32,000 nt of DNA from NCBI GenBank assembly GCA_965224465.1, contig OZ245049.1:2670001-2702000 (forward strand), given 5' to 3'. The stretch is from Flavobacteriaceae bacterium. GTDB lineage: Bacteria > Bacteroidota > Bacteroidia > Flavobacteriales > Flavobacteriaceae. Positions 5,301 through 32,000 of the stretch are shown here, in pieces. The notes under the pieces were generated by a model. The model was not told the DNA's origin and ran no database searches. It was given only the letters and a program-made list of their open reading frames with translations. The translations under genes and the position numbers were made by a program. Within the stretch, counting starts at the first letter, position 1; the number at the start of each line of letters is the position of its first letter.

Positions 5301-5319
5301 GTCTTGATTAAGGGGGGTA

Positions 5320-5480
5320 ATACCAAACACATTTCCAAGTGACGGTTTAAAAATGGAATTACATTTTTGTTTTAGATAGGCGAAAGATTTAAGGACGGCC
5401 TTGCTATCGTTCTCTTTTTCAACAACGCTAGAACGTAAAACAAACTATTTATAGCTGTTATTTTGGATTGTATTTGGCAT
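5320..5480 (-). repeat. MITE-like intergenic repeat, copy A (full length, inverted orientation)
   Basis: The reverse complement reads atgccaaatacaatccaaaataacagctataaatagtttgttttacgttctagcgttgttgaaaaagagaacgatagc...ccgtcacttggaaatgtgtttggtat. It shares the core and both termini with copies at 8411, 18601, 19811, 27335, 27446 and 31531. Confidence 0.8.
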
Positions 5481-5577
5481 AGGACCCAAGGCTGGTTACG
5501 AAAAAGAAAAGAAACATTAGGAAGCATACCTCCAACCCTTGGGCAGAGGTTGTTAAATTATTGACCCAAATTTAAAA

Positions 5578-5609
5578 GGAGGGAAAAAACACGTTCCCTC
5601 CTTTTTTTT
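5578..5609 (+). terminator. Hairpin plus T-run between ahpC and ahpF (possible attenuating terminator)
   Basis: ggagggaa (5578-5585) / ttccctcc (5594-5601), followed by T8 (5602-5609). It sits 15 bp before the ahpF start. Confidence 0.55.
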
Positions 5610-5623
5610 AACACCCATAAATT

Positions 5624-7192: not shown

Positions 7193-7198
7193 TAAATC

Positions 7199-7234
7199 GC
7201 TACACTCATTTAAAATGAAGTGTAGCTTTTTTTT
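7199..7234 (+). terminator. Rho-independent terminator after ahpF
   Basis: gctacact (7199-7206) / agtgtagc (7219-7226), followed by T8. Confidence 0.65.
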
Positions 7235-7544
7235 AGCCTCATTTTATGATAGGATGATACTAAAAACCTCTATTTTTGTTAGGTGATTGATGGAGTCACG
7301 TATCCTAAGCAACTTAGCACAACACTCTTTTCCTCCTTTAAAACAAAAGGAAAAAGCAGCACCTCAATGTCTACAAGCTGTATAAGCGCTCCAAAATCAC
7401 AGTAAAAACCAAAAACAATCCCAAAGATTCTAAGCACATAGTCCTTTGGAAATACATTGGTACAGCAGCAAAAAATGTTCTATTTTAAAACGATCGATTG
7501 CAAAATAGGACGCTATAACAAGACTTAGACAGCCATTAAAAAAT

Positions 7545-8444
7545 ATGAGTTCAACAAAAAAACAAACCATCTCCTTAGTCCTTGGAAGTGGAGGCGCGAG
7601 AGGAATGGCACATGTAGGAGTTATCCGATGGCTAGAAGCCCATAATTTTGAAATTAAAGCCATTTCAGGTTGTTCTATTGGAGCGGCTATTGGAGGCGCC
7701 TATGCGATGGGGAATTTGGACCAATTTGTAGATTGGCTAGACAAATACAAACGAAGCGATATGTATTATATGATCGATTTTATGTTTGGAAAAGGAGGTT
7801 TTGTAAAAGGCGATAAAGTAATGGAAAGGATCAAAACACAAATAGGTACAGATTTGATAGAAAACCTTCCGATCAAATTTACGGCAGTCGCTGCAGACAT
7901 ATATAATGAAGAGGAAGTTTGGTTGTCTAAAGGCCCTTTATGTGAAGCTATTAGAGCCTCCATTTCATTGCCCTTATTTTTTACGCCTTACGAATTGAAT
8001 GGCATCAAACTATTGGATGGAGGCATTTTAAACCCTACACCTATAGAACCAACCTTAACCGATGGAACGGACCTTACAATTGTGGTAAATTTGGGAGGTG
8101 CTCCTGAAGTGAAAATACCCAAAAAAATTGCACAAAAAGACCCTTGGCAGCGCACCTTAGATGTCTATATCAATAAGATGAAAAAATACCGCAACAAAAC
8201 ATCTAACGAATGGAGCATGATGTACATTGCAGATCAGTCTTTTAATGCCATGCAAAATACCATCGCGCAGCAAAAAATGAAAATGTACCCACCAGACTAT
8301 GTCATCAATATCCCTAGAAACAAATGCAATACCTTGGAATTTGAAAAATCTGCAGAAATGATTGCTTATGGCTATGAAATGGCAGAGAAAATAGTAGGTA
8401 AACATAGTGTACCAATTACCATCCAAAGGGATCTCAATAAGTAG
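7545..8444 (+). CDS. Patatin-like phospholipase (RssA/NTE-like)
   Basis: Oxyanion motif GSGGARG, nucleophile elbow GCSIGA (GXSXG) and the catalytic Asp motif LLDGG. The last 11 codons and the stop lie inside repeat copy B. Confidence 0.85.
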   Translation: MSSTKKQTISLVLGSGGARGMAHVGVIRWLEAHNFEIKAISGCSIGAAIGGAYAMGNLDQFVDWLDKYKRSDMYYMIDFMFGKGGFVKGDKVMERIKTQIGTDLIENLPIKFTAVAADIYNEEEVWLSKGPLCEAIRASISLPLFFTPYELNGIKLLDGGILNPTPIEPTLTDGTDLTIVVNLGGAPEVKIPKKIAQKDPWQRTLDVYINKMKKYRNKTSNEWSMMYIADQSFNAMQNTIAQQKMKMYPPDYVINIPRNKCNTLEFEKSAEMIAYGYEMAEKIVGKHSVPITIQRDLNK

Positions 8445-8524
8445 TTTATTTTACGTTCTAGCGTTGTTAAAAAACAGAAAATAATTCCATTTCTTAACCG
8501 TCACTTAGAAGTTGTATTTGGTAT
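8411..8524 (+). repeat. MITE-like intergenic repeat, copy B (internally deleted)
   Basis: accaattaccatccaaagggatctcaataagtagtttattttacgttctagcgttgttaaaaaacag...ccgtcacttagaagttgtatttggtat. It lacks the gatagc/gctatc hairpin module. Confidence 0.75.
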
Positions 8525-11292: not shown

Positions 11293-11357
11293 ACATAATA
11301 TTTTAGAGCAAGGAAACTCCAATAGGCAAGTGTCCTTATTAAAACATGCATCAACAA

Positions 11358-11389
11358 AGGCTCAGCATTCTTAAAAGTCTACTGAGCCT
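11358..11389 (-). terminator. Possible hairpin terminator after the PUL lipoprotein gene
   Basis: aggctcag (11358-11365) / ctgagcct (11382-11389), an 8-bp stem with a large 16-nt loop. The downstream tract on the minus strand is only moderately U-rich. Confidence 0.3.
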
Positions 11390-11458
11390 ATGGACACAAA
11401 AGAGAGGCAAACTACATCGTTTTAATTAAAACGCGACCTGTAGCTAACCGTATTTTTA

Positions 11459-12709
11459 CTAGTGTACAAAAGGAGATTGATATGTTACTGTAACCGTAGA
11501 ATATCCACTAGCATTGGAATGATCAATATTAAATATATAGGTCATTTTTCCTGTTGCTTGGTCATAGCTACTTGTTGGAGCAACCCAATTCCCATCACCC
11601 CATTCATCTTCTAAAATGGAAGAATAGATAATGTAGTTATCAGGATTTAGAGAACCTCCTTGTATGATATACTCACGCAATCCTTCATCGGTTTTAGACA
11701 TTTTAAACAATTCATCCCAAAGAGGAAACTCATATTCTAAATTGATGGCAGATAAATCTCTGTCTGGATTTTCAAGAGTCTCCGCATTCCATGGAGGAGA
11801 AAAAGCACCATTTTCATAGACAAAAGAAATGGTATTGTCAGCCTTAAAAATAAGCTTGTCCATGAGTACATTAAAGCTGTATTCGTTTGCAATCCATTTG
11901 GCAACTTTTTCTTCTCCTAACTCTTGCAATACTGCTTTACTTGCAGGGACAGCATCATTATACCAAAATTCTTTATTTTCGATGGTTTCAGCTCTAAACA
12001 CAAGGTTTAAATAATCATTCAATCCAAAAGAGTTATTCGTCATTTTAAGCATTGGTTCCTCTACGGTAGCATCCTCACTTAACGTAACAATAGTAGTCCC
12101 CGTATAAGACTTGGTAAATTCAGCTTCAAAAGGAGCTACACTTCCATTAGCTGGACTGTGTATTGTTACTCTTACAGGAATTTTCCCAATCCAAAGAGAA
12201 AGGTCTATTCCCTTTCCTTTAATTTCCTGGATCAATGCTCTTTGACCAATGCTAAGAGGTGAAATTTCTTCTTCAGCAATCATTTTAACAACCGTTTCAG
12301 ATTCCAAGGCAACAGAATTTTTTATTCCAGTAACACTTACCAAGTGTAGGGAAAAATTCTGGTTATCTGTCAATACATTCTCGCTATCATTTTTAGCATC
12401 TGCGTGTACAGTTAGCAAGCCTACCGTGGTATTTTTAAGAATTACAACCTCTTTTGTCAAGGTAAATAAACCGGTAATACCTTCTTGATTTTTCAAGTCA
12501 AAAACCAACTTGATTTCGGTATCAAAAGAACGACTCATCACAACATCATAGGCAATATCAGCAGCTTCGCCTTCTACGACTTCCGTAGCTCCTTTACTAA
12601 CTAAACTTACAGTAATATCTCCCGTAAAACCAGCGTCATTGTCTTTTTCACAAGAAAACAACAGCAAGGCAGTTGCAAAAATATAGGTAATTGTTTTTAC
12701 TATTTTCAT
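11459..12709 (-). CDS. Surface lipoprotein of unknown function, third gene of the SusC/SusD locus
   Basis: Signal peptide with lipobox (ALLLFSC-EKD). It starts 12 bp downstream of susD-like on the same strand. No catalytic motif was recognised. Confidence 0.6.
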   Translation of the reverse strand: MKIVKTITYIFATALLLFSCEKDNDAGFTGDITVSLVSKGATEVVEGEAADIAYDVVMSRSFDTEIKLVFDLKNQEGITGLFTLTKEVVILKNTTVGLLTVHADAKNDSENVLTDNQNFSLHLVSVTGIKNSVALESETVVKMIAEEEISPLSIGQRALIQEIKGKGIDLSLWIGKIPVRVTIHSPANGSVAPFEAEFTKSYTGTTIVTLSEDATVEEPMLKMTNNSFGLNDYLNLVFRAETIENKEFWYNDAVPASKAVLQELGEEKVAKWIANEYSFNVLMDKLIFKADNTISFVYENGAFSPPWNAETLENPDRDLSAINLEYEFPLWDELFKMSKTDEGLREYIIQGGSLNPDNYIIYSSILEDEWGDGNWVAPTSSYDQATGKMTYIFNIDHSNASGYSTVTVTYQSPFVH

Positions 12710-12721
12710 AATTATTTATAG

Positions 12722-14137
12722 TTATATATAGGGATTCCACCCTGGGTTTTGACGTATGTTCGTATTGTTTCTGATTTCATCTTTAGGAATAGGAAACAGC
12801 CATCTAAAATCAGATTTTTTGATGGTATTTTCCTTTGCATGCTCTTTATAATGTACTTTAGATACGTTTTTTTGATAACGTTTTAAATCAAAATACCGAA
12901 GTCCTTCTCCAAAGAATTCACGTTGTTTTTCCTTTAATATTTCCTCTAGTAAATGTGCATCATCTACTAAAATCAACGTACTGCTATTGCGCAGTTTTAA
13001 AAAATGCTGAACTGTAGCTCTCGCTGCTGAATACTGTCCCAGTCCTACCTGAGCTTCGGCTTGAATAAAATACATTTCTGCCGTCCTAAGCGCCAATATA
13101 TTCGCTCCTGGAGACAAGGTGTAATCGGTCCTGTATTTCCCTAAAAAGGAAACTTCTACAAGGGTCCCATCAATGGTTCTAAAATCACTATTCAAAAGAC
13201 TAATTCCTTTTCTATAATCCGTATCATCAAATAAAATATGCGGATTAACCATGTAATAATCCCCCAATTCACTGCTGTTAAAAATTTCGGTATAATAGCT
13301 AGAGTCTTCCTCATAAGAAAACAATATTTCCTTGTTACTACTATGTTGTTGCTCCCAAGCTGCGATGTATACGCTTCCAGAAACATCTGTTAGCGATAAG
13401 GATTGCTGGACCAATACTTCGGTTGCATAGTCTAAAGCTGCTGTATATTTTTTACAATCTAAGTTTACCTTAGAAAGCATGGCATAAGCAGCACGTTGAG
13501 AAAAGTGAAATTTAGTATGATAGTTTTCAGGAAACAATGCAACAGCTTGTAATAGCAACTTATTGATTTCCTTGTAGCAAACATCTAAATTAGATCGCTT
13601 TAGTTGCTGAGATTTAAGTGTGTTTTTTAAAATAATCCCATCCATAGAGGCATTTTCTGCCGTATAAGTAGGTGCGTACAATTGAAGTAACTCATAATAA
13701 GAGATTGCTTTTAAAGAGATTGCTTCCGCCTTGATAATGTTGTATTTACGTTGTTCTTTATCTGAATACACGGTGATATTTTCCATTGCTTGCAACAATA
13801 CATTTGCCTTCATAATGGTTGTATAATATTCCCTCCACAAAACATTGGATTCCAAAGCGAGGCTCGCAATGTTCCATTGATAGAGTCTATAATCATCAAT
13901 ATGATCTCTCAAGTGATAAGTAGGGTAGAAATCATCGGCAAGTTTTGAAAATAACAATTTATTTTTAGGAATACTTAGGTAGACCGATGCCAAGGCTTCT
14001 TCCGCTATAGGCAGATTGTCAATGGCATCCATTCCTGTAATTTGGTCTTCGACAGGAAGGTCTAATGAACAGGAATTCATAAGAAACATTGCCCCTATAC
14101 ATCCAATTATTTTTATTTTTATACGCATCGCTATCAT
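12722..14137 (-). CDS. SusD/RagB-family nutrient-binding outer-membrane lipoprotein
   Basis: Lipobox FLMNSC. The TPR-like helical composition and length (~470 aa) are typical of the family. It lies immediately downstream of a SusC-like gene (12-bp gap). Confidence 0.85.
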   Translation of the reverse strand: MIAMRIKIKIIGCIGAMFLMNSCSLDLPVEDQITGMDAIDNLPIAEEALASVYLSIPKNKLLFSKLADDFYPTYHLRDHIDDYRLYQWNIASLALESNVLWREYYTTIMKANVLLQAMENITVYSDKEQRKYNIIKAEAISLKAISYYELLQLYAPTYTAENASMDGIILKNTLKSQQLKRSNLDVCYKEINKLLLQAVALFPENYHTKFHFSQRAAYAMLSKVNLDCKKYTAALDYATEVLVQQSLSLTDVSGSVYIAAWEQQHSSNKEILFSYEEDSSYYTEIFNSSELGDYYMVNPHILFDDTDYRKGISLLNSDFRTIDGTLVEVSFLGKYRTDYTLSPGANILALRTAEMYFIQAEAQVGLGQYSAARATVQHFLKLRNSSTLILVDDAHLLEEILKEKQREFFGEGLRYFDLKRYQKNVSKVHYKEHAKENTIKKSDFRWLFPIPKDEIRNNTNIRQNPGWNPYI

Positions 14138-14149
14138 GTGATAATTCTA

Positions 14150-17100
14150 TTAAAAAGTAAGGTTGATTCCTACCGAAACAATGGGTTGTACAGCACCTAT
14201 TAAATTAGCAGATTCAGGATCTGCACCCGAGAAATTAGACAAGGTGAAAAGATTTTTTCCTTGCAGATTGATACTGCATTTTTTTAAAAACCTTAACCCT
14301 GTATCCAACTGGTATGACAGGCGGACATTATTCACACGGATATAATCTGTTTTCCCAACAGTTCTATCAGTAGCATAAGATTGATTTAAATAAATCTCCC
14401 CACTTGCTACATATAATTTTGGATACGTTTTCCCTTCGTCCCCTAGCTTAAACCAAGTATCTTTCAACTGACCTTGAACTCCATTTTTATTCGCATCATC
14501 ACCACTCCTTATGACCGTATTGTTCCGATAGACCGCTTTCCCACCAGCACTAAAATACAAGGACACACTGCATTCAAAATCTTTATAGCGCAGCTGATGA
14601 TACCAACCACCTGTAACAGGAGACGTGGAAACACCCAATACTGAAAAATCTTTTTCTTTAAGTTTATTATATATAGTGAGTTCCTTGCCATCGGGACTTA
14701 AAAACCTTGGAAGCCCATCTACTGGATGTATACCTAAAGATTTCAGACCATAGATAACAGCTACAGATTCCCCTACTTGATAATCTGGATAAGGATTCCC
14801 ACTTAAATACAAGGGAGCATCTCCATAGAGTTTTAAAACCGTATTTTTATTGTAAGATGCATTAAGAGAAGTGTTCCATCTAAAATTATCAGTACTTAAT
14901 AGCGTGCTATTTATAGTAAGTTCGAGTCCTCTATTCTCCAAAGAACCAATGTTTTTTAAAAGATCTACAAAACCATTAGAAGGAGCAATAGGCATAGTCA
15001 ATAATACATCACTAGTCACACGACGGTAAACCGACAGTCCAATGGTTGTGCTTTTTAGAAGGCTTAGGTCAACCCCTATATTTATAGACTGACTTTGCTC
15101 TGGTTTTAATTTTTCATTAAACAGGTTCATTAAATAAAACGCTCGATTCCCTGCATAGGAATTGACACCATAGGTATAGGTAGGAACGACCAAAGAAGCA
15201 TCGATCCCAGCTAAGCTAGCCGTAACCCCATAAGAAGCACGTATTTTAAATGATGTAACAAAGGCATAAGGACTCCAAAAATCTTCTGCACTCATGGTAT
15301 ACGCAACACCTGTAGCCCAAAACGAATTCCAGCGTTTATTGGCAGGTAATAAGGAAGAACCATCCTTTTTATAGCTTGCATAAAAATCGTATGTACTGTC
15401 CCAATTATAGCCGAGAGAAACCCCCATTCCTAGTTGAGCTTGACTCTGATTAGTAGCGGTAGATCGGACGCGTCTTCTTCCTTTAATGTTCTGATTGATA
15501 CCAGCAGCCGAATTCATTTTACTCGGCAATCCATACCCTGTAATTCCAACGCGATCCACCATGGATTTAAAATAATCAACATTGGCAGATAAAAACACCT
15601 GATGCTTCCCAAAATATTTTTGGTAATTGAGTCGGGTGTTGGTACTAATACTGGTATTGGTTCCTTTGTTTTTTACAACTTTTCCACGATGCGCTTCTGG
15701 CACGCCACTAGTTACTTCTGTATAGGCTGTTTTAGGCGTGATACCCAATGATTCAGAAACCATATTGTCCAATCCTATTACCGATGCTAATTTTAAATCA
15801 GGTAAAATACTCCAATAAATATTCGTGGAAATATTAAAACGTTTACTTGTGGACTTTCCTGAATATTGATGGATTAAATTAGTAAAACTAACCCGAGGAA
15901 AAGAGGTCAGTTTAACATCGCTATATGGTGTTTCGTAGGGATTTAGTTGATAGAGTAAGGTTGACGGATTCCCCAAAGAAGAACTAGGTGTTTTAGTCCG
16001 TACAAAACCACTTCCAACAGTAATCATTCCCATAACTTTTTTTGAAAACTGATGTTCAAAATTTATACGGGTAGAAAAACTTTCGGTACTATTTCCATTA
16101 AATTTACCACCTTGTTTTGAGAAATTTCCAGAAAGGTAAAATTTGGTATCATCACTTCCTCCTGTCACCGTTAAATGATGAGATTGATAGGCACTTATTT
16201 TTGTCAATTCACGAAACCAATCCGTGTCTATATTTTTTAGCGAATCCAACTTTTCGCGTCCATTTGCAATCAGAAGTGCCAAATTCGGACTGTTTTTATA
16301 ATACTTTTTAAAATAGTCTTCTGAATAATAATACCCCGGAGTATTCCTGTTTTTTGAGCGATGTTCAAAGGCTAGTTTTTCCGCTGTTCGCATCATTTTT
16401 ACCCCAGGACTGCCTCTTAAAGTAAGTCCCTGATGAAATCGATATTGAAATGTAGTCGCTCCTTTGACTCCTCTTTTTCCAGTAATTTCAATGACACCAT
16501 TTGCGGCTTTAATTCCGTACAAGGCATTGGCGGTAGCATCCTTCAATACTTTTATTTCTTCAATATCGTTAATACTGATTAAGGCAAAGGCTTCTGGACT
16601 AATCAGTTGCCCATCCAACACATATAATGGTTGGTTGGCCCTGTTGTCATAGGCTTCTTTATTGGTAGCATTCACCCCTTTTCCTTTGATTGAAAGTGTA
16701 GAAGTTCCACGAATTCTAATTTTTGGTGCTTTCCCTAATTCGCCATTATTTACAACCACTAATCCTGCAACTTGCCCTTGCAATAACTCACCGATAGACA
16801 TGCTGGCGATGTTATTTATTTTTTTTGTATCAATCGTAGCCACAGCTCCAGTTGCTTTTCGTGTATCTAAATCATTGATGTTTGCATTAAAATGCAATAC
16901 GACCGTATTTAAATCTACAGCATCTTCTTCTAAAGCAATATTCAATACGGCACTATTTACACGTATTTTACGTGTCTTAAATCCTAAATAACGAATAATT
17001 AACAGGTCTCCTTTCCGAACTCTCAATTGGTATTTCCCATGAAAATCAGACGAAGTCCCCCTGCCTGTGTTTTTTAATAATACGGTTACCCCTATTAATT

Positions 17101-17221
17101 TTTCAGCAGTTAAAGCACTTGAGATTTCCCCTTGTAAAAGGAAGATTTTGCTGTCTTGTGCATGTATAGAACATGCAGTTAAAACAACCGTAAAAAGCAG
17201 TAAAATAGATCGGATTTTCAA
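14150..17221 (-). CDS. SusC/RagA-family TonB-dependent outer-membrane transporter
   Basis: 1023 aa. It has a signal peptide, an N-terminal carboxypeptidase-regulatory-like domain (GVTVLLKNTGRGTSSDFHGKYQL) and plug-like segments. The beta-barrel ends in a terminal aromatic residue (GINLTF). Confidence 0.92.
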   Translation of the reverse strand: MKIRSILLLFTVVLTACSIHAQDSKIFLLQGEISSALTAEKLIGVTVLLKNTGRGTSSDFHGKYQLRVRKGDLLIIRYLGFKTRKIRVNSAVLNIALEEDAVDLNTVVLHFNANINDLDTRKATGAVATIDTKKINNIASMSIGELLQGQVAGLVVVNNGELGKAPKIRIRGTSTLSIKGKGVNATNKEAYDNRANQPLYVLDGQLISPEAFALISINDIEEIKVLKDATANALYGIKAANGVIEITGKRGVKGATTFQYRFHQGLTLRGSPGVKMMRTAEKLAFEHRSKNRNTPGYYYSEDYFKKYYKNSPNLALLIANGREKLDSLKNIDTDWFRELTKISAYQSHHLTVTGGSDDTKFYLSGNFSKQGGKFNGNSTESFSTRINFEHQFSKKVMGMITVGSGFVRTKTPSSSLGNPSTLLYQLNPYETPYSDVKLTSFPRVSFTNLIHQYSGKSTSKRFNISTNIYWSILPDLKLASVIGLDNMVSESLGITPKTAYTEVTSGVPEAHRGKVVKNKGTNTSISTNTRLNYQKYFGKHQVFLSANVDYFKSMVDRVGITGYGLPSKMNSAAGINQNIKGRRRVRSTATNQSQAQLGMGVSLGYNWDSTYDFYASYKKDGSSLLPANKRWNSFWATGVAYTMSAEDFWSPYAFVTSFKIRASYGVTASLAGIDASLVVPTYTYGVNSYAGNRAFYLMNLFNEKLKPEQSQSINIGVDLSLLKSTTIGLSVYRRVTSDVLLTMPIAPSNGFVDLLKNIGSLENRGLELTINSTLLSTDNFRWNTSLNASYNKNTVLKLYGDAPLYLSGNPYPDYQVGESVAVIYGLKSLGIHPVDGLPRFLSPDGKELTIYNKLKEKDFSVLGVSTSPVTGGWYHQLRYKDFECSVSLYFSAGGKAVYRNNTVIRSGDDANKNGVQGQLKDTWFKLGDEGKTYPKLYVASGEIYLNQSYATDRTVGKTDYIRVNNVRLSYQLDTGLRFLKKCSINLQGKNLFTLSNFSGADPESANLIGAVQPIVSVGINLTF

Positions 17222-17435
17222 AATAAAAGTATAAACGAAGCCGCTAATTTAGAACTATTATTAATAACGAGGCACTTCTAGTCGATTTTATTTTTAATAA
17301 GACTAAATAATATTTGGAATAAGCTTTAAATAAGCTAATTAGGTCAATACTAAAAATATGTTTTATTTTTATAAAGCACGTTAAAAACACAAGACGCTAA
17401 CAGCATACACGCAATTAAATTTTTATAAAAAAGTA

Positions 17436-18425
17436 TAGGGTTACCCTCTTAAGTCGCAATATATTTGATTGATTTATAGGCTATTGGTTTTTCTTTACAC
17501 ATTCTTTTTAGTAGGTTTTCTAAGATGTTTTCTCTAAAATTGAGTCGATTAAATCGATAGAAATACTCTTGAATGTATTGATTTATATACTCTTTCTCAC
17601 AATACGAATGAACGCCTCTTAACCAATTTTTAAAGTTTCTTATCTGAAAATGTAGCATCTTAAAATTCTCACCATTATTAGATAATATTTGTGTTAAATT
17701 TGGGAAGTTCTTTTTTAAAGGTTTATATCCTGACCAGCCATCTGTAACTATATTGGCATCAAACTTTATATGTTTCTCAAATATTGGTTTTAATGATTTG
17801 CAACTATAATCTTCTATCACCTTTGCGTATGCTCTGCCTGGTTTACCATTTCTATTTTCAATGGCAATTACAACTCTAATTTTAGTAGCTGATTTACTAC
17901 GTCCTTGCTCTCCTTTTTTTGGTGTACCTATTTCAAACTCGTCTACATGAACTTCTTTTTCTAAAGGATATTTCTCACTACTTTTCATTGCTTCTTGTAC
18001 TTTTCTTCTAAACAACCAAGCTGTCATCTGTTTAACACCGTGCCTTTCTGCTAACCAAATACTATTCGCTCCTTTCTTACTGGTAACTATATCATAAGTC
18101 ATTTCAAAGGCTTCTACAATACCAAATTTAACTTTATGAAATAGAGTGTTCGCAGTTGGAGACTCATCATATCCGCATTTTGTACAACGTCTATTATACG
18201 CTCTTTTTCCTTTTAAAAACTTTGTGTTTTTACATTTAAAACAGGAAAAACCTTCTTCCCATTTTACAGATGATAAAAAAGATAAACATAAACTCTCTTC
18301 TCCAAACTTAGTGTGAAATTCTTTACGAGATAATTCTTTTAATATTTTCATAGCTTTCTTTTTCTAAAAGTAAAAAATCCTTTCAGAAAAACAAAATATT
18401 AGTGAGATTTAAATAGGTAACCCTA
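17436..18425 (-). mobile_element. IS1595-family insertion sequence (990 bp) with intact target-site duplication
   Basis: Terminal inverted repeats tagggttacc... (17436) and ...ggtaacccta (18425). They are perfect for 10 bp, and by hand count about 19 of 26 positions match. They are flanked by the 8-bp direct repeat aaaaagta at 17428-17435 and 18426-18433. One transposase ORF lies inside. Confidence 0.85.
17449..18351 (-). CDS. IS1595-family (ISXO2-like) DDE transposase with N-terminal zinc ribbon
   Basis: N-terminal CxxC...CxxC zinc ribbon (CFKCKN...CTKCGY), then a DDE-type core (HVDEFEIG...IVTDGWSGY...). The length of 300 aa is typical. Confidence 0.88.
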   Translation of the reverse strand: MKILKELSRKEFHTKFGEESLCLSFLSSVKWEEGFSCFKCKNTKFLKGKRAYNRRCTKCGYDESPTANTLFHKVKFGIVEAFEMTYDIVTSKKGANSIWLAERHGVKQMTAWLFRRKVQEAMKSSEKYPLEKEVHVDEFEIGTPKKGEQGRSKSATKIRVVIAIENRNGKPGRAYAKVIEDYSCKSLKPIFEKHIKFDANIVTDGWSGYKPLKKNFPNLTQILSNNGENFKMLHFQIRNFKNWLRGVHSYCEKEYINQYIQEYFYRFNRLNFRENILENLLKRMCKEKPIAYKSIKYIAT

Positions 18426-18600
18426 AAAAAGTAATTATAAAAACCCTAACTCCATGTTCCTTCTCATTTTAAAATGTATCAAAAACAGGTATTGATATCT
18501 TATGGAGACACAATAGAAATTATCCCTACAGAACTAGAGAAGTTATTTTTCAGAATTCTGATCATAAAAAAAACAGTTTGGTAGCTAAGCGGATCTCTTA

Positions 18601-18749
18601 CACCAATTACAATCCAAAATAACCAATATAAGAAGTTTGTTTTACGTTCTAGCGTAGTTAAAAAACAAAACGATAGCTAAGCTATTCATTCATTTTCCGA
18701 CTAGCTATAATACCAATTATAGACCATCACTTAGAAATGTATTTGGTAT
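18601..18749 (+). repeat. MITE-like intergenic repeat, copy C (full length)
   Basis: caccaattacaatccaaaataaccaatataagaagtttgttttacgttctagcgtagttaaaaaacaaaacgatagctaagctatt...ccatcacttagaaatgtatttggtat. Confidence 0.8.
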
Positions 18750-18759
18750 AAAAACTTCA

Positions 18760-19728: not shown

Positions 19729-19810
19729 TTTATGTAGCGCATTTAGTTACAGAGGTAAAACTACAAAAAAAGCCTCTCAGAAAAAATCTAAGAGGCTCCT
19801 TTTTATAAAT

Positions 19811-19932
19811 ATGCCAATTACAAGCCAAAATGACCGATATAAATGGTTTATTATACGTTCTAGCGTTGTTGAAAAACAGAACGATAGCGAAAGCTATCCT
19901 TCCATCTTTCACCTAGCTATAATACCTATAAT
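19811..19932 (+). repeat. MITE-like intergenic repeat, copy D (right end missing)
   Basis: atgccaattacaagccaaaatgaccgatataaatggtttattatacgttctagcgttgttgaaaaacagaacgatagcgaaagctatcc...ctagctataata. It abuts the stop codon of the OmpA-like gene. Confidence 0.75.
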
Positions 19933-20643
19933 CTAATTCCCAGAAGACTGGTTTTTAGCATCATTTTTCATTTTACTATTCGGTAAAATAACAACGTTTA
20001 CACGTCTATTTTTAGCACGACCTACCTTGGTGGCATTGTCAAATTTAGGTTGTGTTTCTCCGTACCATTGCGTGGTAAAACGCTGTGCACCTAAACCTTT
20101 AGAACTGATAAAGTAATGAGTTACTGCATTGGCTCTTTTTTTAGATAAATTCATGTTTAATTGATCTGAACCAGCACTATCTGTATGCCCAACAACCAAT
20201 ACATTGGTGTCAGCATATTCACGAAGCACAGCTGCCAATTTATTCAATGTTTGTTGCGAAGAATAATTGATATTAGATTTCCCAGTATCAAAATAGACCC
20301 CACTTTTTTCATCAAAAGTAATCACAATTCCATCATCCACACGTTCTACAACAGCTCCTGGAATTTCATTTTCAATTTGTTGTGCTTGGTCATCCATCTT
20401 TTTACCAATCAATACACCTGCAGCACCACCAACAACACCTCCGATGATAGCTCCTAACTCAGAATTCTTTTTACTCCCAACATTGTTTCCAATAATAGCA
20501 CCCAAAATAGCACCACCAGCAACACCGATAGCACCGCCTTTTTGTTTATTATTAGCGTTTTGTAAAGAGCTACAACCTCCTAAATTAAGGGTCACTAACA
20601 GTACGAGTAATCCTAAACCTATGTTTTTAATTTTCGTTTTCAT
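19933..20643 (-). CDS. OmpA-family lipoprotein with an N-terminal glycine-zipper region
   Basis: The start MKTKIKNIGLGLLVLLVTLNLGGC (lipobox) at 20643 is preferred, because the longer ORF overlaps the upstream gene. Gly-zipper: GGAIGVAGGAILGAIIGNNVG. OmpA-like motif: VVGHTDSAGSDQLNMNLSKKRANAV. Confidence 0.85.
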   Translation of the reverse strand: MKTKIKNIGLGLLVLLVTLNLGGCSSLQNANNKQKGGAIGVAGGAILGAIIGNNVGSKKNSELGAIIGGVVGGAAGVLIGKKMDDQAQQIENEIPGAVVERVDDGIVITFDEKSGVYFDTGKSNINYSSQQTLNKLAAVLREYADTNVLVVGHTDSAGSDQLNMNLSKKRANAVTHYFISSKGLGAQRFTTQWYGETQPKFDNATKVGRAKNRRVNVVILPNSKMKNDAKNQSSGN

Positions 20644-22813: not shown

Positions 22814-23263
22814 AGATAGAAAAGGACATTAAATATTGGTATAAAAAACCAAAAATCGAACCATAAATATACGCAATCGTTATAGAAGCAGAAAAAGGCA
22901 ACATCAACACCCTCAACCTAAGGGAACAAGGCATACATCCGTCTGACTATTTTATATGATGAGGTAGAGCCATAGCCAATAAAAATAACAAGACTCCTTC
23001 AAAGAAAAATAAGAGTTTCTCCTGAAAAAGAAGGGCTATTTCACTAATATACATTTGATGTTACACTGACAGTTAGTCTTTTAGGTGTCTTTTAAAAAAA
23101 CAACGCGACTATCAACACCTAGTCTAGGTATTAAAGCAATTGGAACGCTTGGTATATTGCACTCTAAAAAATAAGTGCTTATACCAATTACAACCGACCT
23201 CAACGCTAAAAATAAAACACGCTGTATCATCGCAAATTACGCCATCAAAAAAAAACAGTCCGC

Positions 23264-23656: not shown

Positions 23657-23727
23657 CCAACCAAACCGCTACTTTAGATTAAAAAACAATTCTATTTCTA
23701 AACTGTCTCTTGGGAATGTGTTGATAT
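23657..23727 (+). repeat. Right-end fragment of the MITE-like repeat (F-type variant), copy H
   Basis: ccaaccaaaccgctactttagattaaaaaacaattctatttctaaactgtctcttgggaatgtgttgatat. It shares a 29-nt perfect block (23675-23703) with 27552-27580. Confidence 0.6.
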
Positions 23728-24056
23728 AAGAGTATTTGTTGCATAAAACGTAATATAAAAAAGTCAACATCTACAAAAAATATTTCAGGACATTACCCCT
23801 AACAGAGAATCAAGTTGAAAACACTCTTTAAAAATAGAATTTCACAGCAAACAAACAACAGACTACAACTAGATGACTCCTTGACATCTACTCCTTCATA
23901 AAGACACGCTACGATACAAATATTCAATCGAAAAGGCAATCAAACAGCGAACGATCTAAAATAATCCAATCAATAAGCTGTACTATAAGGTATTACCGAT
24001 ACATCCGCTCTAACGGTTAAAACTATAATAAAAATAGTGCACATAACATTATTTTG

Positions 24057-24064
24057 TATATTTG
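24057..24064 (+). promoter_or_regulatory. Candidate Bacteroidota -7 promoter box (TAnnTTTG)
   Basis: tatatttg matches the TAnnTTTG sigma-A -7 consensus of Bacteroidota exactly and lies about 180 bp upstream of the Hcp-like start. No convincing -33 TTG was seen. Confidence 0.2.
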
Positions 24065-24242
24065 AACAATGTCTATTAACGCATATACGGTAAAAAACTA
24101 CCACTATCTATGTTCAAAAACAATGGGCATATCATAATAAACACATAGTTACTAAACAACAAGAAATGAAATGGTCAAGTATTAATTAAAAAACAGCAAT
24201 AAACTAAAGTACAACACCAATTTACACTAGAAATAAAAAAAT

Positions 24243-24950
24243 ATGAGCAGTTTTAAAGGCATTGCCAAAATAGACGGAAAAGAAAGAAATTTATTAAGAG
24301 CCGAATACACATTATACAAATTACGAGACATCACTGGAAATCCAACTACATCCACTCGCAAAACACCAATTCAATTAATGTTTGAATCAACTGGATTTGA
24401 TGACGACTTGTACTATTATATGTTTTCAGCGAATGCTAGTTTTAGCGGAGAGTTACTTTTTTATGACCGAGATGGATTAAAAACACTGTATAAAGTAGAG
24501 TTTCATAACGCTTACATTATAGGGCTTACTGAAGAATTCAACCACGAAGACAATTTACCTTTACACATTAAATTATCTATAACCTGTGGTGCCGTTAAAA
24601 TAAAAGGAGTTAAAAAATTAGAAAACTGGGTATTTAACGACCCTTTTGTAAATATTAAAGAAACGAAACTTGAAAGAAAAGAAGAACCACATTTGATTGA
24701 TTTCTATTACGTAGACACAGAAAACAACAGGGAACCCAAACTAACCTACGGAGATGAAATTTATTTAATTGTAGAAAGTCAAGGGATGATTGGAGATACG
24801 GTAGATTTAAAACTCAATGACAAAACACTAGACTTTACATACAAAGGAAACCGTCTTAAAAACGACACTATTGAAGATTACAAAATAAGAACTAACAGAG
24901 ATAAAATATCTCTTACAGTAATTGAAGAAGATAACGAAGAATTAGAATAA
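24243..24950 (+). CDS. tssD: Bacteroidota-type T6SS tube protein Hcp/TssD with a ~100-aa C-terminal extension
   Basis: Residues 1-~128 follow the Bacteroidales/Flavobacterial TssD pattern: F-x-A-x-L-x-x-x-GKE-x-x-L, Y-x-L-x-x-D-x-x-G-x-P, ESTxxD, an F-x-x-xD block, E-F-x-N-A-Y-I, then P-L-x-I-x-L-S-I and IKI-G-x-x-x-x-NW. Canonical TssD ends around there, but this ORF continues for about 100 more residues. Confidence 0.72.
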   Translation: MSSFKGIAKIDGKERNLLRAEYTLYKLRDITGNPTTSTRKTPIQLMFESTGFDDDLYYYMFSANASFSGELLFYDRDGLKTLYKVEFHNAYIIGLTEEFNHEDNLPLHIKLSITCGAVKIKGVKKLENWVFNDPFVNIKETKLERKEEPHLIDFYYVDTENNREPKLTYGDEIYLIVESQGMIGDTVDLKLNDKTLDFTYKGNRLKNDTIEDYKIRTNRDKISLTVIEEDNEELE

Positions 24951-24951
24951 A

Positions 24952-25278
24952 ATGAACGAAAATAAATTTCAAATAATATACAAAGGCAAGGTAGAAAAAG
25001 AAATTTCTATTCAACTTCAAGACATCGATCGAGAAATAAAAGAACAACAAAAAGGGACTAACTATACTCGTGTAAACGAAGAAGGCACAACTTTAATGCA
25101 GGTGAAACATGAATTTATAAATATTGGTGAAAGTTTTGCTCAAATAAAATACAATACCTCTGCTACAATAACAGAAAGAGGTACGGTTGTAGTAAGCCAG
25201 TTTAAACAAGAGATTACATCAAGAGAGAAGAAGTTTGGTACTACAAGAATTCAAACGGGAATTTTGAAGGCTCATTAA
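24952..25278 (+). CDS. Small hypothetical protein (possible effector adaptor or chaperone, or the N-terminal part of the downstream toxin)
   Basis: 108-aa ORF whose ATG lies one nucleotide after the Hcp stop. No signal peptide, no TM and no recognised motif. Its 3' end overlaps an open upstream extension of the next ORF. Confidence 0.5.
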   Translation: MNENKFQIIYKGKVEKEISIQLQDIDREIKEQQKGTNYTRVNEEGTTLMQVKHEFINIGESFAQIKYNTSATITERGTVVVSQFKQEITSREKKFGTTRIQTGILKAH

Positions 25279-25367
25279 CTGAAGCTAAACTAGCATTTCC
25301 AGATGTAGATTTTAAAGAATTAAAACAACCCGAAATAGGAAATATAGATCATAGAGAATATGATCAC

Positions 25368-26117
25368 ATGCAAATCAATCCTATCTTACAGCCTTTAACA
25401 TGGGAAACTATTAACGAATATGACGGAGAAAAACAAGGCGGACCAACAACTTGGGAGAAATGGGCAGACGCAACACAGATAGCTTTAGATGTTGTAGGAA
25501 TGATTCCTGCTGTAGGAGAAATAGCAGATTGTATTAATGGAGTTATTTCATTAGCCAGAGGTAATTATGCCGATGCAGCATTAAGTTTTGCCGCAATGAT
25601 TCCTTTTTTCGGAACTGGAGCAACTATAGCAAAACAAGTAAGAAAACTTAAAAAGATAGTTAATCTCGAAAATGCTAAAGGTGTTTACGATATAATTGTA
25701 AAAAACGGAGAAGAAATTCAAGGTGTTTACGACTTAATTATCAAAAACGCAGAAGATGCTCAAGGGTATGTTGGGCAATCTAAAAATATTTTTCAGCGCT
25801 TTACACAACATTTTAACCCTAAAAGAGGTAAATTGGCTCATAAAGTTATAGAGAATGGTTCCGTAATTCATAAAATGGCTGGATCTACCAAATTAGAACG
25901 CGAAATGTATGAACAGTTCGTGATTTTAGAAAAATATGGAGGAGACATTACTAAAAAAGGGAATAGCGAGCTTCATAAACTTTTAAACAAAGTAAATCCT
26001 GTTGGCGGTAGGTTTGATTTAAAATCAAAAACAGGACGAGAATTATTTGATGAAAAAGCATTAAAAATTGCAAAAAAATATAATTTACCAACAACATTTG
26101 ACCCTATACTATTTTAA
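25368..26117 (+). CDS. Polymorphic-toxin-type effector: pre-toxin TG (PT-TG) domain plus a GIY-YIG (URI-type) nuclease domain
   Basis: PT-TG-like segment: ALDVVGMIPAVGEIADCINGVISLARGNYADAALSFAAMIPFFGTGATIAK (two hydrophobic helices and a TG motif). C-terminal GIY-YIG pattern: GVYDL-x12-YVGQS-x6-R-x3-H ... LEREMYEQ ... LLNKVNP. Confidence 0.6.
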   Translation: MQINPILQPLTWETINEYDGEKQGGPTTWEKWADATQIALDVVGMIPAVGEIADCINGVISLARGNYADAALSFAAMIPFFGTGATIAKQVRKLKKIVNLENAKGVYDIIVKNGEEIQGVYDLIIKNAEDAQGYVGQSKNIFQRFTQHFNPKRGKLAHKVIENGSVIHKMAGSTKLEREMYEQFVILEKYGGDITKKGNSELHKLLNKVNPVGGRFDLKSKTGRELFDEKALKIAKKYNLPTTFDPILF

Positions 26118-26119
26118 CT

Positions 26120-27001
26120 ATGTACTTATCAGGCTTTAAAGACGCTCCCTATTTAATGATAAAACCAAATTCAGATTTAGATAACATTAATCCAGATTTC
26201 CTAAAAGACAAATACACGATCAGACTGTCTGGTAAATTTGATGATTTATTTTTGAAAAAATTCAACAAAATCTATAAAAATATTTCTAATTTGGATATCG
26301 GAAACCAATATGGAGATGGAGATAATTCATTTATTTATCAACTAATAAATTTAAAAGGTCTCGTTATTTCACTATATAAAGATTCAAGTTTTATTTTAGA
26401 TTGCAGTAAACTTCCAAAATCACTGTATTCATTACATTTACAAGTTTATTCAAAAAAAAACATACTTAATATTGAAGCTTTAAATAAAACAGATTTACAA
26501 CACCTAACAATTTCAGATTACGACGAAAAAGACCTGACAAAATTAAGTAGCTTAACGCATTTAAAAAGTTTAAGTTTTAAAACTGCTAAAATAAAATCAT
26601 TAAAAGGCATTGAACCATTAAGCAATCTTACATGTCTTTCTTTTGGAGGAGTAAGAAGCCTTACAGATATCTCACAAATAACAACTTTACAAAAACTAAA
26701 ATATCTAGAATTTGATATTTGTTGGAAATTAGAAGATTTCAGTCCCATAGGAAATATTAAAGAGCTGGAAGTTTTAGAACTTATGGATTGTAAAAACTTA
26801 GCTTCTATTAAATTTGTAAAGGCAACACATAAGTTGAGGCAACTATACACTTTAGGCACAACAATAATTAATGATTTTGACACAACTCCCGCTGAAAACA
26901 TTCCTATTTATTTTGGAAGTCGTGCTTCAAAAAAATACAATCAAGAATACCCCGATAAAGAAATAAAAGAAGGACAAAAATCTTGGAGTAACTATTTGTA
27001 A
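26120..27001 (+). CDS. Cytoplasmic leucine-rich-repeat protein (candidate cognate immunity protein)
   Basis: About 7 tandem LRR units of roughly 22 aa (LTHLKSLSFKTAKIKSLKGIEPLSNLTCLSFGGVRSLTDISQITTLQKLKYLEFDICWKLEDFSPIGNIKELEVLELMDCKNL). No signal peptide. The ATG is 2 nt after the toxin stop. The LRR call is firm; the immunity role is inferred. Confidence 0.65.
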   Translation: MYLSGFKDAPYLMIKPNSDLDNINPDFLKDKYTIRLSGKFDDLFLKKFNKIYKNISNLDIGNQYGDGDNSFIYQLINLKGLVISLYKDSSFILDCSKLPKSLYSLHLQVYSKKNILNIEALNKTDLQHLTISDYDEKDLTKLSSLTHLKSLSFKTAKIKSLKGIEPLSNLTCLSFGGVRSLTDISQITTLQKLKYLEFDICWKLEDFSPIGNIKELEVLELMDCKNLASIKFVKATHKLRQLYTLGTTIINDFDTTPAENIPIYFGSRASKKYNQEYPDKEIKEGQKSWSNYL

Positions 27002-27334
27002 CGAGAACAAAACATAGCTCCTAAAAACTAAAATAGAAACGGCTTATTCCTGTTTCACATACAATCATAAAAAAAAGACAATAAAACGAGAATTTATCCA
27101 TAAAATAACTCAAAACAAACAGACACTATTACACACCACAAGGCATTTGGAGAGGGAAGTTACTTCCCTCCTGACGGATATGGTTTAGAAAAAAACTCCA
27201 AATAAACAATATAAATAATTCTGGTATTCTACACTATTGGCCAGTAAAATACGCAGCATTCACTTTTATCAAAATACAACATACAATCGTTTTTTTTTGC
27301 GCTATATAAAAAACAAAACTCTCCAAACAAATAA

Positions 27335-27445
27335 CACCAATTACAATTCAAAATAACCGATATAATTAGGTTGTTTTACGTTCTAGCGTTGTTGAAAAAC
27401 AGAACGATAGCTACGGCTATCCATCCATTCCCCGCCTAACTATAA
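27335..27445 (+). repeat. MITE-like intergenic repeat, copy E (first of a head-to-tail pair, right end missing)
   Basis: caccaattacaattcaaaataaccgatataattaggttgttttacgttctagcgttgttgaaaaacagaacgatagctacggctatccatccattccccgcctaactataa. Confidence 0.8.
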
Positions 27446-27605
27446 CACCAATTAAAATTCAAAATGACAGATATAAATAGTTTATTTTACGTTCTATCGT
27501 TCTTAAAAAATAGAACGACAGCTACGGCTATCCATCCATTCCCCGCCTAACTAGATTAAAAAACAATTCTATTTCTAAACCTTCACTTGGGGATGTATTT
27601 GGCAT
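27446..27605 (+). repeat. MITE-like intergenic repeat, copy F (full length, variant right arm)
   Basis: caccaattaaaattcaaaatgacagatataaatagtttattttacgttctatcgttcttaaaaaatagaacgacagctacggctatcc...ctagattaaaaaacaattctatttctaaaccttcacttggggatgtatttggcat. Confidence 0.8.
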
Positions 27606-27701
27606 AAGAGATAAGACAAGAACAATCATGAATAAATAACCTATTAAATCAATTCATTCTTTTTAGAATCCCTAAATTTGTTTGATATAAAAACAAGACA
27701 C

Positions 27702-28978
27702 ATGGATAAATCTTCTCAAGAGTTATTAGCATTTATAGATAAAAGCAGCACTTCGTTTCACGCAGTAGATGTGATACAAAAAAAACTAGACACCTTAGAC
27801 TACGAGCAACTTATAGAAACCGAAAAGTGGCATATTTCTGCGAACTCAAAATATTATATCACGCGAGCAGACGGTTCATTATTGATGATTCATACTCCAA
27901 AAAATATCAGCAAGTCAAACCCATTTAAGATGATTGGTGCGCATACCGATTCTCCTTGTTTAAAAGTAAAAAGCAACCCTACTTCTATAAAATCGGGCTA
28001 TTGCATGCTAAACGTAGAAGTTTATGGAGGTGTTTTACTCAGCAGTTGGTTTGACAAAGACATCCAAATAGGAGGTCGTGTTTTTACTGAAAACAAGGCA
28101 GGGGAATTAAAAAGTCACCTCATCACTTTACCCTATAAATTACGCATTCCTCGCTTGGCAATACATTTAGACAGGGAGGTAAACAAAGCAGGTTTTAAAA
28201 TCAACGCGCAGGAACACGTGTTCCCTATTATGGGATTAGACACCAGCATTTCTTTTGACAAATTACTATTAAAAGAGATAACAAACAGCGATGGTCTCAC
28301 TATTTTAAGTACCGATTTGTTTTTATTTGATGCCCAAGCATCCAGTTTTGGAGGAGTCGAAAACGAATTTATTTACGCACCTCGATTGGATAATTTATCA
28401 AGTACACACGCTGCATTGGAATCGTTAAAAACACAAGATTTCCACCATGATAATTTTCAAGTAGCTGTATTTTTTCAGCATGAAGAAATTGGTTCTAAAA
28501 GTCAAAACGGAGGAGACTCCAACTTTTACAAGTGAGTTTAAATCGAATTACCAGTGCTTTGGACTGGAAAAACGAAGACTTCTCACAGTCCATGGCTAAA
28601 TCGTATTTTATTTCTGCAGACATGGCACATGCAGTACACCCGAATTATGCAGAAAAACACGATAAAAACCACCAACCACATATAAACAAAGGACTTGTAA
28701 TCAAAGCCAATGCCAATATCCGATACGCTACTGATGCGTTTTCTATTGCAAAATTCAAGCAATGGTGTCACAAAGCCGGCGTTTCCTACCAAGATTTCTG
28801 TTCTAGAAACGATGTAGGCTGTGGATCTACCATAGGCCCTATGACGGCTTCAAAACTAGGAGTAGCCACTATAGATATCGGAAATCCAATGCTTTCCATG
28901 CACAGTATTCGTGAAATGGCAGGAAGCAAAGACCACGGAGAATTAATTAAAGTTTTCAATGTTTTTTACAAGAGTTAA
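27702..28978 (+). pseudogene. apeB: M18-family aspartyl aminopeptidase, interrupted by a -1 frame break
   Basis: Two ORFs overlap by 4 nt (27678-28535 frame 0, 28532-28978 frame 2). Together they rebuild a ~430-aa M18 aminopeptidase (HTDSPCLKVK, EEIGS..., MHSIREM). The break is at a T4 run (28524-28527), and one extra T would give ...GGDSNFLQVSLNRI... The probable true start is the ATG at 27702. Confidence 0.8.
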
Positions 28979-29010
28979 GAACATCAATTATGCGGTCACC
29001 TAAAGCATAG

Positions 29011-29050
29011 AAAATGTATTTCTAAATGGAAATTTAGAAATACATTTTTA
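29011..29050. terminator. Strong bidirectional terminator between the aminopeptidase and the zinc-ribbon gene
   Basis: 17-nt perfect arms aaaatgtatttctaaat (29011-29027) / atttagaaatacatttt (29032-29048) with loop GGAA. An A-run and T-run are built into the arms. Confidence 0.75.
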
Positions 29051-29212
29051 TTAATTCTAGGTAACAAACTTAGAAACAGCAATAGCTATTGTTCCATTTT
29101 TTAACAATAAATAGGCGTAAAAAGATATAATTCTCATCGCTTACTTAGACCTATTTTCGGTACAATTAAGCAAGGTCACCTAATATGGGACTCGCTTAAA
29201 ATAACGCATATT

Positions 29213-31530: not shown

Positions 31531-31606
31531 TACCAGCAATTACAATCCAAAATGATCGATATAAATGATTTATTTTACGTTGTATCGTTGTTCAAAAACA
31601 GACCAC
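31531..31606 (+). repeat. MITE-like intergenic repeat, copy G (left half only, degenerate)
   Basis: taccagcaattacaatccaaaatgatcgatataaatgatttattttacgttgtatcgttgttcaaaaacaga... Confidence 0.55.
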
Positions 31607-31616
31607 ACTTACGCCC

Positions 31617-32000
31617 CTATATGATCAAGCGCACACCACCGAGCTCTTCAATTCTATACGGGAACTTTTCACTTGGAGAACCAATAAACATAAAATTGAT
31701 TGGAATATTCCATTGTTCAGAAAGTTCACGAATCAATGCAGGAGAAAACACCCCTTCAACAACAACAAGTTCCACATCGATCTCTGGATATTCCCTGTCT
31801 AAAAAGCCAATCTCTAATTTCAGATGTTCTGGTTGCTGTTGTCCTTTTTTAAGAACAATTGCAATTTTAATTTTTTTGGTATGTTCGTTTTTAGATACAT
31901 ACAACATCACCTTATTCAAAGACGCAATATTATCGCCTTTGGTAAAAAACACAAACTCTTGTTCATTGATATCATCGATCAATTGTTGTATTTTTTTATC
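31617..32000 (-). CDS. 3' part of a gene truncated by the window edge, possibly the C-terminal cytoplasmic domain of an APC-type permease
   Basis: The frame stays open to the window end. The tail ...FMFIGSPSEKFPYRIEELGGVRLII resembles the conserved C-terminus I associate with a long Bacteroidota permease family. That is recollection only, with no diagnostic motif. Confidence 0.4.
   Translation of the reverse strand, partial: DKKIQQLIDDINEQEFVFFTKGDNIASLNKVMLYVSKNEHTKKIKIAIVLKKGQQQPEHLKLEIGFLDREYPEIDVELVVVEGVFSPALIRELSEQWNIPINFMFIGSPSEKFPYRIEELGGVRLII

Follow-up and report, generated by a model that had tools for sequence, protein, structure and literature searches.

What are the short non-coding repeats that crowd the gene spacers of this Flavobacteriaceae chromosome segment, and how did they come to be there? 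In the window, by which we mean the whole stretch of 32,000 nucleotides analysed, 16 gene spacers measure 70 nt or more; nine of them contain a copy or fragment of a single repeat family, a tenth has a solo terminus only, and the family accounts for ~3.7% of the DNA. A preliminary description of the same DNA had called the repeats MITE-like. The name suits their small size, their lack of coding capacity, their terminal inverted repeats and their multiple copies, but neither a consistent target-site duplication nor an autonomous IS with matching ends was found to go with it. We read the repeats as a non-autonomous, MITE-like 'foldback' element family that is now old and decaying, and put the probability of this reading at about 0.7.

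Repeat detection in the window returned a six-member direct repeat family together with six inverted matches to 5363-5484. The common core claimed in the preliminary description is real: with up to three mismatches, this 23-nt sequence has seven matches in the window against 0.00 expected from 100 shuffles. The 12-nt terminus AYRCCAAWTACA, searched with up to one mismatch, has 13 matches in the window against 2.0 expected. Copy extents were taken from an nhmmer profile built from five full-length copies, and the profile and the terminus pattern together delimit nine copies or fragments and one solo end in 32 kb (Table 1). All the copies listed earlier were recovered by the profile and the core pattern, with coordinates right to within a few bases, and the left end that had been suspected at 23181 turned out to be an exact match to the terminus. 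One diverged copy, at ~29004, was absent from the earlier list and is probably older than the others; it contains a perfect palindrome with 17-bp arms (AAAATGTATTTCTAAAT GGA ATTTAGAAATACATTTT). At the solo terminus, a right-end-like motif TTGGTATA and the exact left end TATACCAATTACA face outward within 23150-23192, with TTGGTAT at 23150-23156 and a 15-nt spacer containing a small hairpin between the two ends. Two solo termini may account for this arrangement, or else a junction or excision scar.

Table 1. Members of the repeat family in the window, with the evidence that delimits each and its composition or surroundings
Feature	Position	Strand	Support	Composition or surroundings
Core TACGTTCTAGCGTNGTTNAAAAA (23 nt)	5415-5437	-	pattern match	
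Core TACGTTCTAGCGTNGTTNAAAAA, further matches	8452, 18643, 19854, 27377, 27488, 31576	+	pattern match	
Full-length copy, 161 nt	5320-5480	-	nhmmer 5318-5485, E = 5e-51	19 nt past the ahpC stop codon (5298-5300), upstream of the conserved ahpC/ahpF terminator hairpin and T-run (~5575-5609)
Central-deletion copy	8409-8524	+	nhmmer 8410-8479 and 8472-8526	Left terminus, part of the core and right module; covers model positions 8-77 and 116-169
'Dimer-type' copy, both termini	18600-18749	+	nhmmer 18597-18751, E = 3e-41	X module, then a second unit with an internal deletion; starts 10 nt past the GFO/Idh/MocA stop codon (gene's coding strand)
Copy without right terminus	19811-19932	+	nhmmer 19810-19924, E = 2e-30	Directly abuts the ompA stop codon (19933-19935); the conserved intrinsic terminator of ompA (19765-19803) lies on the other side
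Solo left terminus ATACCAATTACA	23181-23192	+	exact pattern match	
Right-module-only fragment	23674-23727	+	nhmmer model positions 113-167, E = 3e-8; repeat family D3	
First tandem unit	27334-27444	+	nhmmer 27333-27446, E = 5e-33	X module, left terminus to CTAACTATA, without the right module
Second tandem unit, full length, both termini	27445-27605	+	nhmmer 27444-27608, E = 4e-49	~45 nt upstream of the conserved M18 promoter-like region (alignment with relatives)
Diverged copy	~29004-29173 (extent uncertain)	-	nhmmer 29013-29108, E = 4.8e-6	In the spacer where the M18 and 362-aa genes converge
Truncated copy, left 70 nt only	31535-31604	+	nhmmer 31534-31604, E = 2e-14	12 nt past the stop codon of ORF 31617-31982 (gene's coding strand)

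Nine members in 32 kb might be products of local duplication or recombination and not parts of a dispersed family. Neighbouring copies are indeed the most alike, the units at 27334 and 27445 sharing 89% identity, and the copies at 18600 and 19811 have an internal junction in common. Other genomes, however, carry copies as well, at loci of no relation to these. When 185,579 species genomes were scanned with the core, only two matched, the Flavobacteriaceae MAGs L001 and L002, each with a single full-length copy whose neighbours are unrelated housekeeping genes (an M24 aminopeptidase in one case, an amidotransferase in the other), and a mini copy occupies another unrelated locus in a third assembly, L006. 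Including the source of the window, the family is thus found in at least four assemblies. The window copies resemble the MAG copies (81-87% pairwise identity over the X module) as much as they resemble one another (77-89%). Since copies stand at unrelated loci in other Flavobacteriaceae assemblies, local duplication does not explain them, and we hold it to be extremely unlikely. No match to the core and terminus patterns was obtained among metagenome contigs and no genuine one among viral sequences, where 12 further matches were rejected because the full profile showed them to be chance matches to a 25-nt pattern only; a distant blastn search of plasmids and phages with a full copy likewise gave none.

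The dispersed-family reading also draws on sites where the element is missing. Orthologous loci were reached through homologues of the GFO/Idh/MocA gene, which carries a copy on each side in the window, and comprise six contigs at 74-79% protein identity (L004-L009) and one at 98% (L003). In the relatives, ompA is followed by an 84-nt spacer and by the GFO gene converging on the Patatin gene, and ahpF and ahpC are separated by 154 nt. The ompA-GFO spacer measures 204 nt in the window against 84 nt, element-free, in L004, L006, L007 and L009, and the ahpC-ahpF spacer measures 323 nt against 154 nt, element-free, in L004; at both places the excess in the window is the element. The 98% strain is represented by the only contig found for it, a 1,240-bp contig from Logan SRR24204450, both ends of which lie inside element cores, which indicates that the same insertions are present there and that the assembly broke at the repeats. 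Both sites are therefore polymorphic, being filled in the window and in the 98% strain and empty in the more distant relatives, and the insertions postdate the split from the 74-79% relatives and predate that from the 98% strain. The preliminary description had named local duplication as a finding that would undo its reading; with copies at unrelated loci elsewhere and none at the relatives' orthologous sites, that objection fails.

A full unit is ~160 nt long and non-coding, and copies and units span 70-165 nt. As claimed earlier, no copy encodes a protein: none contains an ORF of at least 80 aa, and overlap with genes is limited to the closing codons of the Patatin ORF and 1 nt of the M16 stop codon. 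Rfam gave no match at the gathering threshold anywhere in the window, the best hit in a permissive scan of the tandem pair had E = 0.54, and no tRNAs were found in the window. The termini are inverted repeats of each other, as had been noticed; they match over 12 nt (AYRCCAAWTACA / TGTAWTTGGYRT) and continue imperfectly to ~26 nt. The symmetry goes further than the ends, for the unit aligns from end to end with its reverse complement (p ~0 in five of six copies by pairwise alignment; ~30 bits on the opposite strand with nhmmer). The full unit thus amounts to a single long palindrome, imperfect and with GATAGC-N4-GCTATC at its centre.

The members differ in how much of this palindrome they retain, and the arrangements observed are X-Y, X-X-Y, x-Y and L-R mini forms. 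The copy at 8409 lacks model positions 78-115, and the L006 mini copy (5392-5463, 72 nt) consists of the two arms only, with inverted ends that match perfectly over 12 of 12 positions. The preliminary description had attributed such differences to the loss of whole modules; the short variants are real, but deletions of the palindrome centre and end truncations explain them best. Long palindromes readily give rise to short forms of this sort. Slippage-type deletion of the centre would have produced forms such as these two, and truncation of an end would have produced the other short variants. The head-to-tail pair at 27334-27605 calls for a similar correction. The adjacency of its two units stands, but the junction at which CTArCTATA meets AyACCAATTA is common to the pair, the 18600 copy and the 19811 copy, which suggests that all three belong to one 'dimer-type' subfamily and argues against independent adjacent insertions. 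Judged from this shared junction, the pair is more likely one member of that subfamily than two insertions.

How would such units have moved? Inverted repeats at the exact ends of the unit suggest the work of a DDE-type transposase in trans, and we propose that a transposase recognising the terminal repeats, encoded elsewhere or since lost, spread the copies. No shared direct repeat flanks the seven complete copies when 2-, 3- and 4-bp frames and shifted termini are tried, and no duplication is consistent among the eight readable ends. The A/T-rich flanks would fit a TA duplication as well as no duplication at all, and in the empty sites, known from relatives at 74-79% protein identity, divergence is too great to place single bases. 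Only the diverged copy 29004-29173 has a direct repeat on its two sides, GGTCACCTAA, which is 10 bp long and perfect (within 28994-29183). An autonomous partner IS with matching terminal repeats, which the preliminary description had proposed to look for, is absent from the window and from 10 related loci. The window does carry a complete IS1595-family insertion sequence of 990 bp (17436-18425; transposase ORF 17449-18351 on the reverse strand). It has its own 20-bp inverted repeats, TAGGGTTACCnnnTTAArTC (TAGGGTTACC...), which are unrelated to the repeat termini, and is flanked by its own target duplication, AAAAAGTA, which is perfect over 8 bp (17428-17435 and 18426-18433). The insertion is apparently recent. 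With ends and a duplication of its own, it was rejected as the partner of the repeat and is taken as an independent insertion.

The lack of a detected target duplication would also fit a REP/BIME-like or palindrome-associated element moved as single-stranded DNA by a Y1 transposase (RAYT or IS200/IS605), which leaves none, and so would the strong palindrome, the 3' intergenic positions and the modular and tandem arrangements. Such a mechanism sits poorly with a unit of ~160 nt instead of 20-40 nt, with inverted repeats at the very termini, with left ends that adjoin no conserved tetra- or pentanucleotide, and with the neighbouring ORFs scanned in the window and the fetched loci, among which no Y1 transposase was found. 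We consider it improbable, and keep to a MITE-like element mobilised through its terminal repeats.

In each of the four cases that can be resolved (ompA, ahpC, L001 and L002), the element sits past a gene's stop codon and ahead of that gene's intrinsic terminator. In L001 the gene ends at 7537 and the element occupies 7579-7745, followed by an A-tract, a hairpin and a T-tract; in L002 stop codon and left terminus overlap, and the element is followed after 53 nt by a 13-bp terminator. Copies placed between stop and terminator would have to be co-transcribed with the upstream gene. We propose that insertions survive mainly in this niche, where they would be transcribed as long hairpins.

It had been stated that every copy is intergenic. 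This is true of most, but the copy at 8409-8524 supplies the end of a gene: the ORF for a Patatin-like phospholipase (7545-8444) agrees with its relatives up to ...GKH, and the codons that follow, the final 12 of the ORF, are read from the repeat together with the TAG stop. The insertion thus replaced the native C-terminus. The last base of the same copy overlaps the stop codon of the M16 peptidase (8524-8526).

Both orientations relative to flanking genes occur, as described before, with a ratio of about 5:3 to the upstream gene. An orientation rule, by which the reverse-complemented element would follow the gene in sense, held 4:1 in the window and ~5:3 overall, which is not significant, and was dropped because L002 and L006 go the opposite way. 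Promoter donation by the tandem pair to the M18 gene was likewise rejected as unlikely, since M18 keeps, downstream of the pair, a promoter-like region (TAAATTTG) that it shares with element-free relatives; a sigma-70 promoter scan is uninformative for Bacteroidota.

The position of the copies at gene ends invites a functional reading, in which the element, transcribed in 3' UTRs or operon spacers, is a cis-acting RNA module used by the host, and either its long hairpin or, on the reverse strand, the central GATAGC hairpin with the T-rich tract after it tunes termination or mRNA stability, as has been reported of some ERIC and Correia copies. Apart from the stop-to-terminator placement in four of four cases, this reading can call on the reverse strand. 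There, several copies show the 6-bp stem GATAGC/GCTATC (GATAGC-N4-GCTATC) followed by GTTCTNTTTT, a weak terminator-like match, and arm mismatches are A.C in 44 instances against G.T in 19, so that the reverse-strand RNA pairs better, although neither the mismatch nor the terminator-like counts are independent, as the copies share ancestry. Fold z-scores are also lower on the reverse strand (-1.9 to -3.3) than on the forward strand (-0.5 to -2.65).

Several tests argue against a strong function of the element. Consensus folding showed compensatory changes in 0-1 pairs, and 1 of 20 pairs has a double change, in a set of 8 related sequences with low power; the covariation of the reverse-strand hairpin was no better than in shuffles (0.205 against 0.199, with 93% of cells paired), again in 8 related sequences with low power. 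Many copies are truncated, the orientation to the upstream gene is mixed, and genes with insertions keep their own strong terminators downstream of the element. Divergence between orthologues is also close to that of fourfold-degenerate sites: two orthologous partial copies are ~97% and 93.6% identical between the window and the 98% strain (n=2), and the fourfold-degenerate sites of the flanked gene are 96.1% identical, so the element evolves roughly neutrally. On balance, a host-used RNA module is unlikely. A more elaborate picture is of a 3'-UTR-seeking element that targets the gap between stop codon and terminator, possibly through terminator-proximal A/T-rich DNA or the hairpin itself, whose strand-biased RNA hairpin would in this lineage tune termination or mRNA decay of the upstream gene, and whose 'dimer-type' copies and direct pairs might help to shuffle cargo islands; this we offer as speculation and consider unlikely.

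The same figures bear on the age that we assign to the foldback element. No two copies are nearly identical, which means that there is no sign of recent movement. Pairwise identities of 77-89%, taken together with near-neutral evolution, mark the family as old, decayed and not demonstrably active, and it would today be a decaying relic rather than an active element.

In architecture, the family is closest to the Correia elements of Neisseria and the ERIC/IRU elements of enterobacteria, with a modularity like that of BOX. Correia elements (CREE/NEMIS) are non-coding, ~100-160 bp long, bounded by ~26-nt terminal inverted repeats and devoid of a transposase of their own; they exist in full-length and internally deleted forms, lie densely next to genes, are co-transcribed and can form long hairpins. 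The present family shares with them its size, its lack of coding capacity, the ~26-nt inverted ends, the internal-deletion forms, the high density, the capacity for long hairpins and the lack of its own transposase, and its copies, too, would be co-transcribed. The likeness is architectural only: compared by description, the two have in our judgement no recognisable sequence similarity, the TA target duplication typical of Correia was not found here, the host belongs to Bacteroidota, and no outward promoter or IHF site was identified in the present family. ERIC/IRU elements, of Enterobacteriaceae and Vibrio, are likewise palindromic, if imperfectly, from end to end; they measure slightly more than 100 nt and occupy transcribed intergenic sites, with size variants that arise by internal insertion or deletion and with no known transposase. 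They differ in sequence and in host, and ERIC is conserved across genera at many loci, whereas the present family is rare in public genomes and evolves about neutrally.

The BOX elements of Streptococcus pneumoniae are modular too, with terminal modules and a middle module that can be repeated or deleted; however, boxA, boxB and boxC do not form one whole-length palindrome with matching terminal inverted repeats, and the sequences are unrelated. REP/BIME elements, which are associated with RAYT, resemble the family in being intergenic, palindromic, often placed after stop codons and without target duplication. They are nevertheless 20-40 nt long, with a conserved 5' tetranucleotide and a Y1 transposase, in contrast to a ~160-nt unit with true terminal inverted repeats; by its size, by the absence of a leading or flanking tetranucleotide and by the absence of a Y1 gene among the ORFs scanned, the family falls outside the REP/BIME definition.

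Within the same phylum, the ~240-bp MITECca01 of Cardinium derives from the IS982-family ISCca4, with which it shares matching inverted repeats (PMC9769881). It is a MITE in a repeat-rich genome, but its parent IS is clear, whereas none was found for the present family in the window or the related loci. MITEs have also been catalogued in bulk in Bacteroidota (PMC11602168). A literature search returned no published name or description of the present family, nor its core sequence in the papers searched, and Rfam, as noted, gave no match; the preliminary description had likewise not recognised the sequence as a described family. Like MITEs, the elements are short and non-coding, carry terminal inverted repeats and show presence/absence polymorphism at orthologous sites. 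We conclude that this is an unnamed MITE-like family of an ordinary kind, at unusually high local density, and that it does not represent a novel type of system.

As this family shows, foldback MITE-like repeats can be seeded as densely in a Flavobacteriaceae chromosome as Correia elements are in Neisseria. Such repeats break short-read and metagenome assemblies, as at the ends of the L003 contig, and rewrite gene ends, as at the C-terminus and stop codon of the Patatin protein; transcripts, for example those of ahpC and ompA, would also gain long hairpins at their 3' ends. The family can further serve as a lineage marker and offers a defined set of insertions on which the effects of hairpins on termination and mRNA stability can be followed. 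To our knowledge, such effects have hardly been studied in Bacteroidota.

Two larger blocks of the window raise the question of whether the copies could also be the ends of composite cargo units, one carrying the SusC/SusD/M16 genes (8409-18749) and one the Hcp/GIY-YIG/LRR genes (23674-27605). Both blocks are absent at the corresponding positions in the relatives and both are bounded by copies in the same orientation; compared with the relatives, the window has an additional 10.3-kb SusC/SusD/DUF4929/M16 block plus the IS1595 element between the Patatin and GFO genes. Yet L010 has the SusC/SusD block at the same locus without the element or the IS, and the fragment at 23674 lacks an outer terminus. 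Elements also fill about half of the spacers in the window, so some coincidence with block boundaries is to be expected. Composite units are accordingly very unlikely.

The blocks themselves have some further features. The SusC/SusD/DUF4929/M16 island (8524-17221) is missing between GFO and Patatin in L004, L006, L007 and L009, where the 3' ends of those two genes meet or overlap; in L010 the block (5119-10008) directly follows ompA and there is no GFO gene. At 24243-27001, four genes (an Hcp/TssD-domain protein of 235 aa, a 108-aa ORF, a GIY-YIG-domain protein of 249 aa and a leucine-rich-repeat protein of 293 aa) replace the DUF4395 gene of the relatives, and this block looks like a cargo island of the type VI secretion effector/immunity type. 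The GIY-YIG-domain ORF contains two tandem 42-nt (14-codon) units, 81% identical, at 25678-25761. Downstream of the tandem pair, the M18 aminopeptidase gene (27678-28978), a single ORF of 425 aa in the relatives, is split into the overlapping ORFs 27678-28535 and 28532-28978, which cover Pfam profile positions 1-284 and 289-432; the split reflects a frameshift, so that either the gene is a pseudogene or the sequence has an error there.
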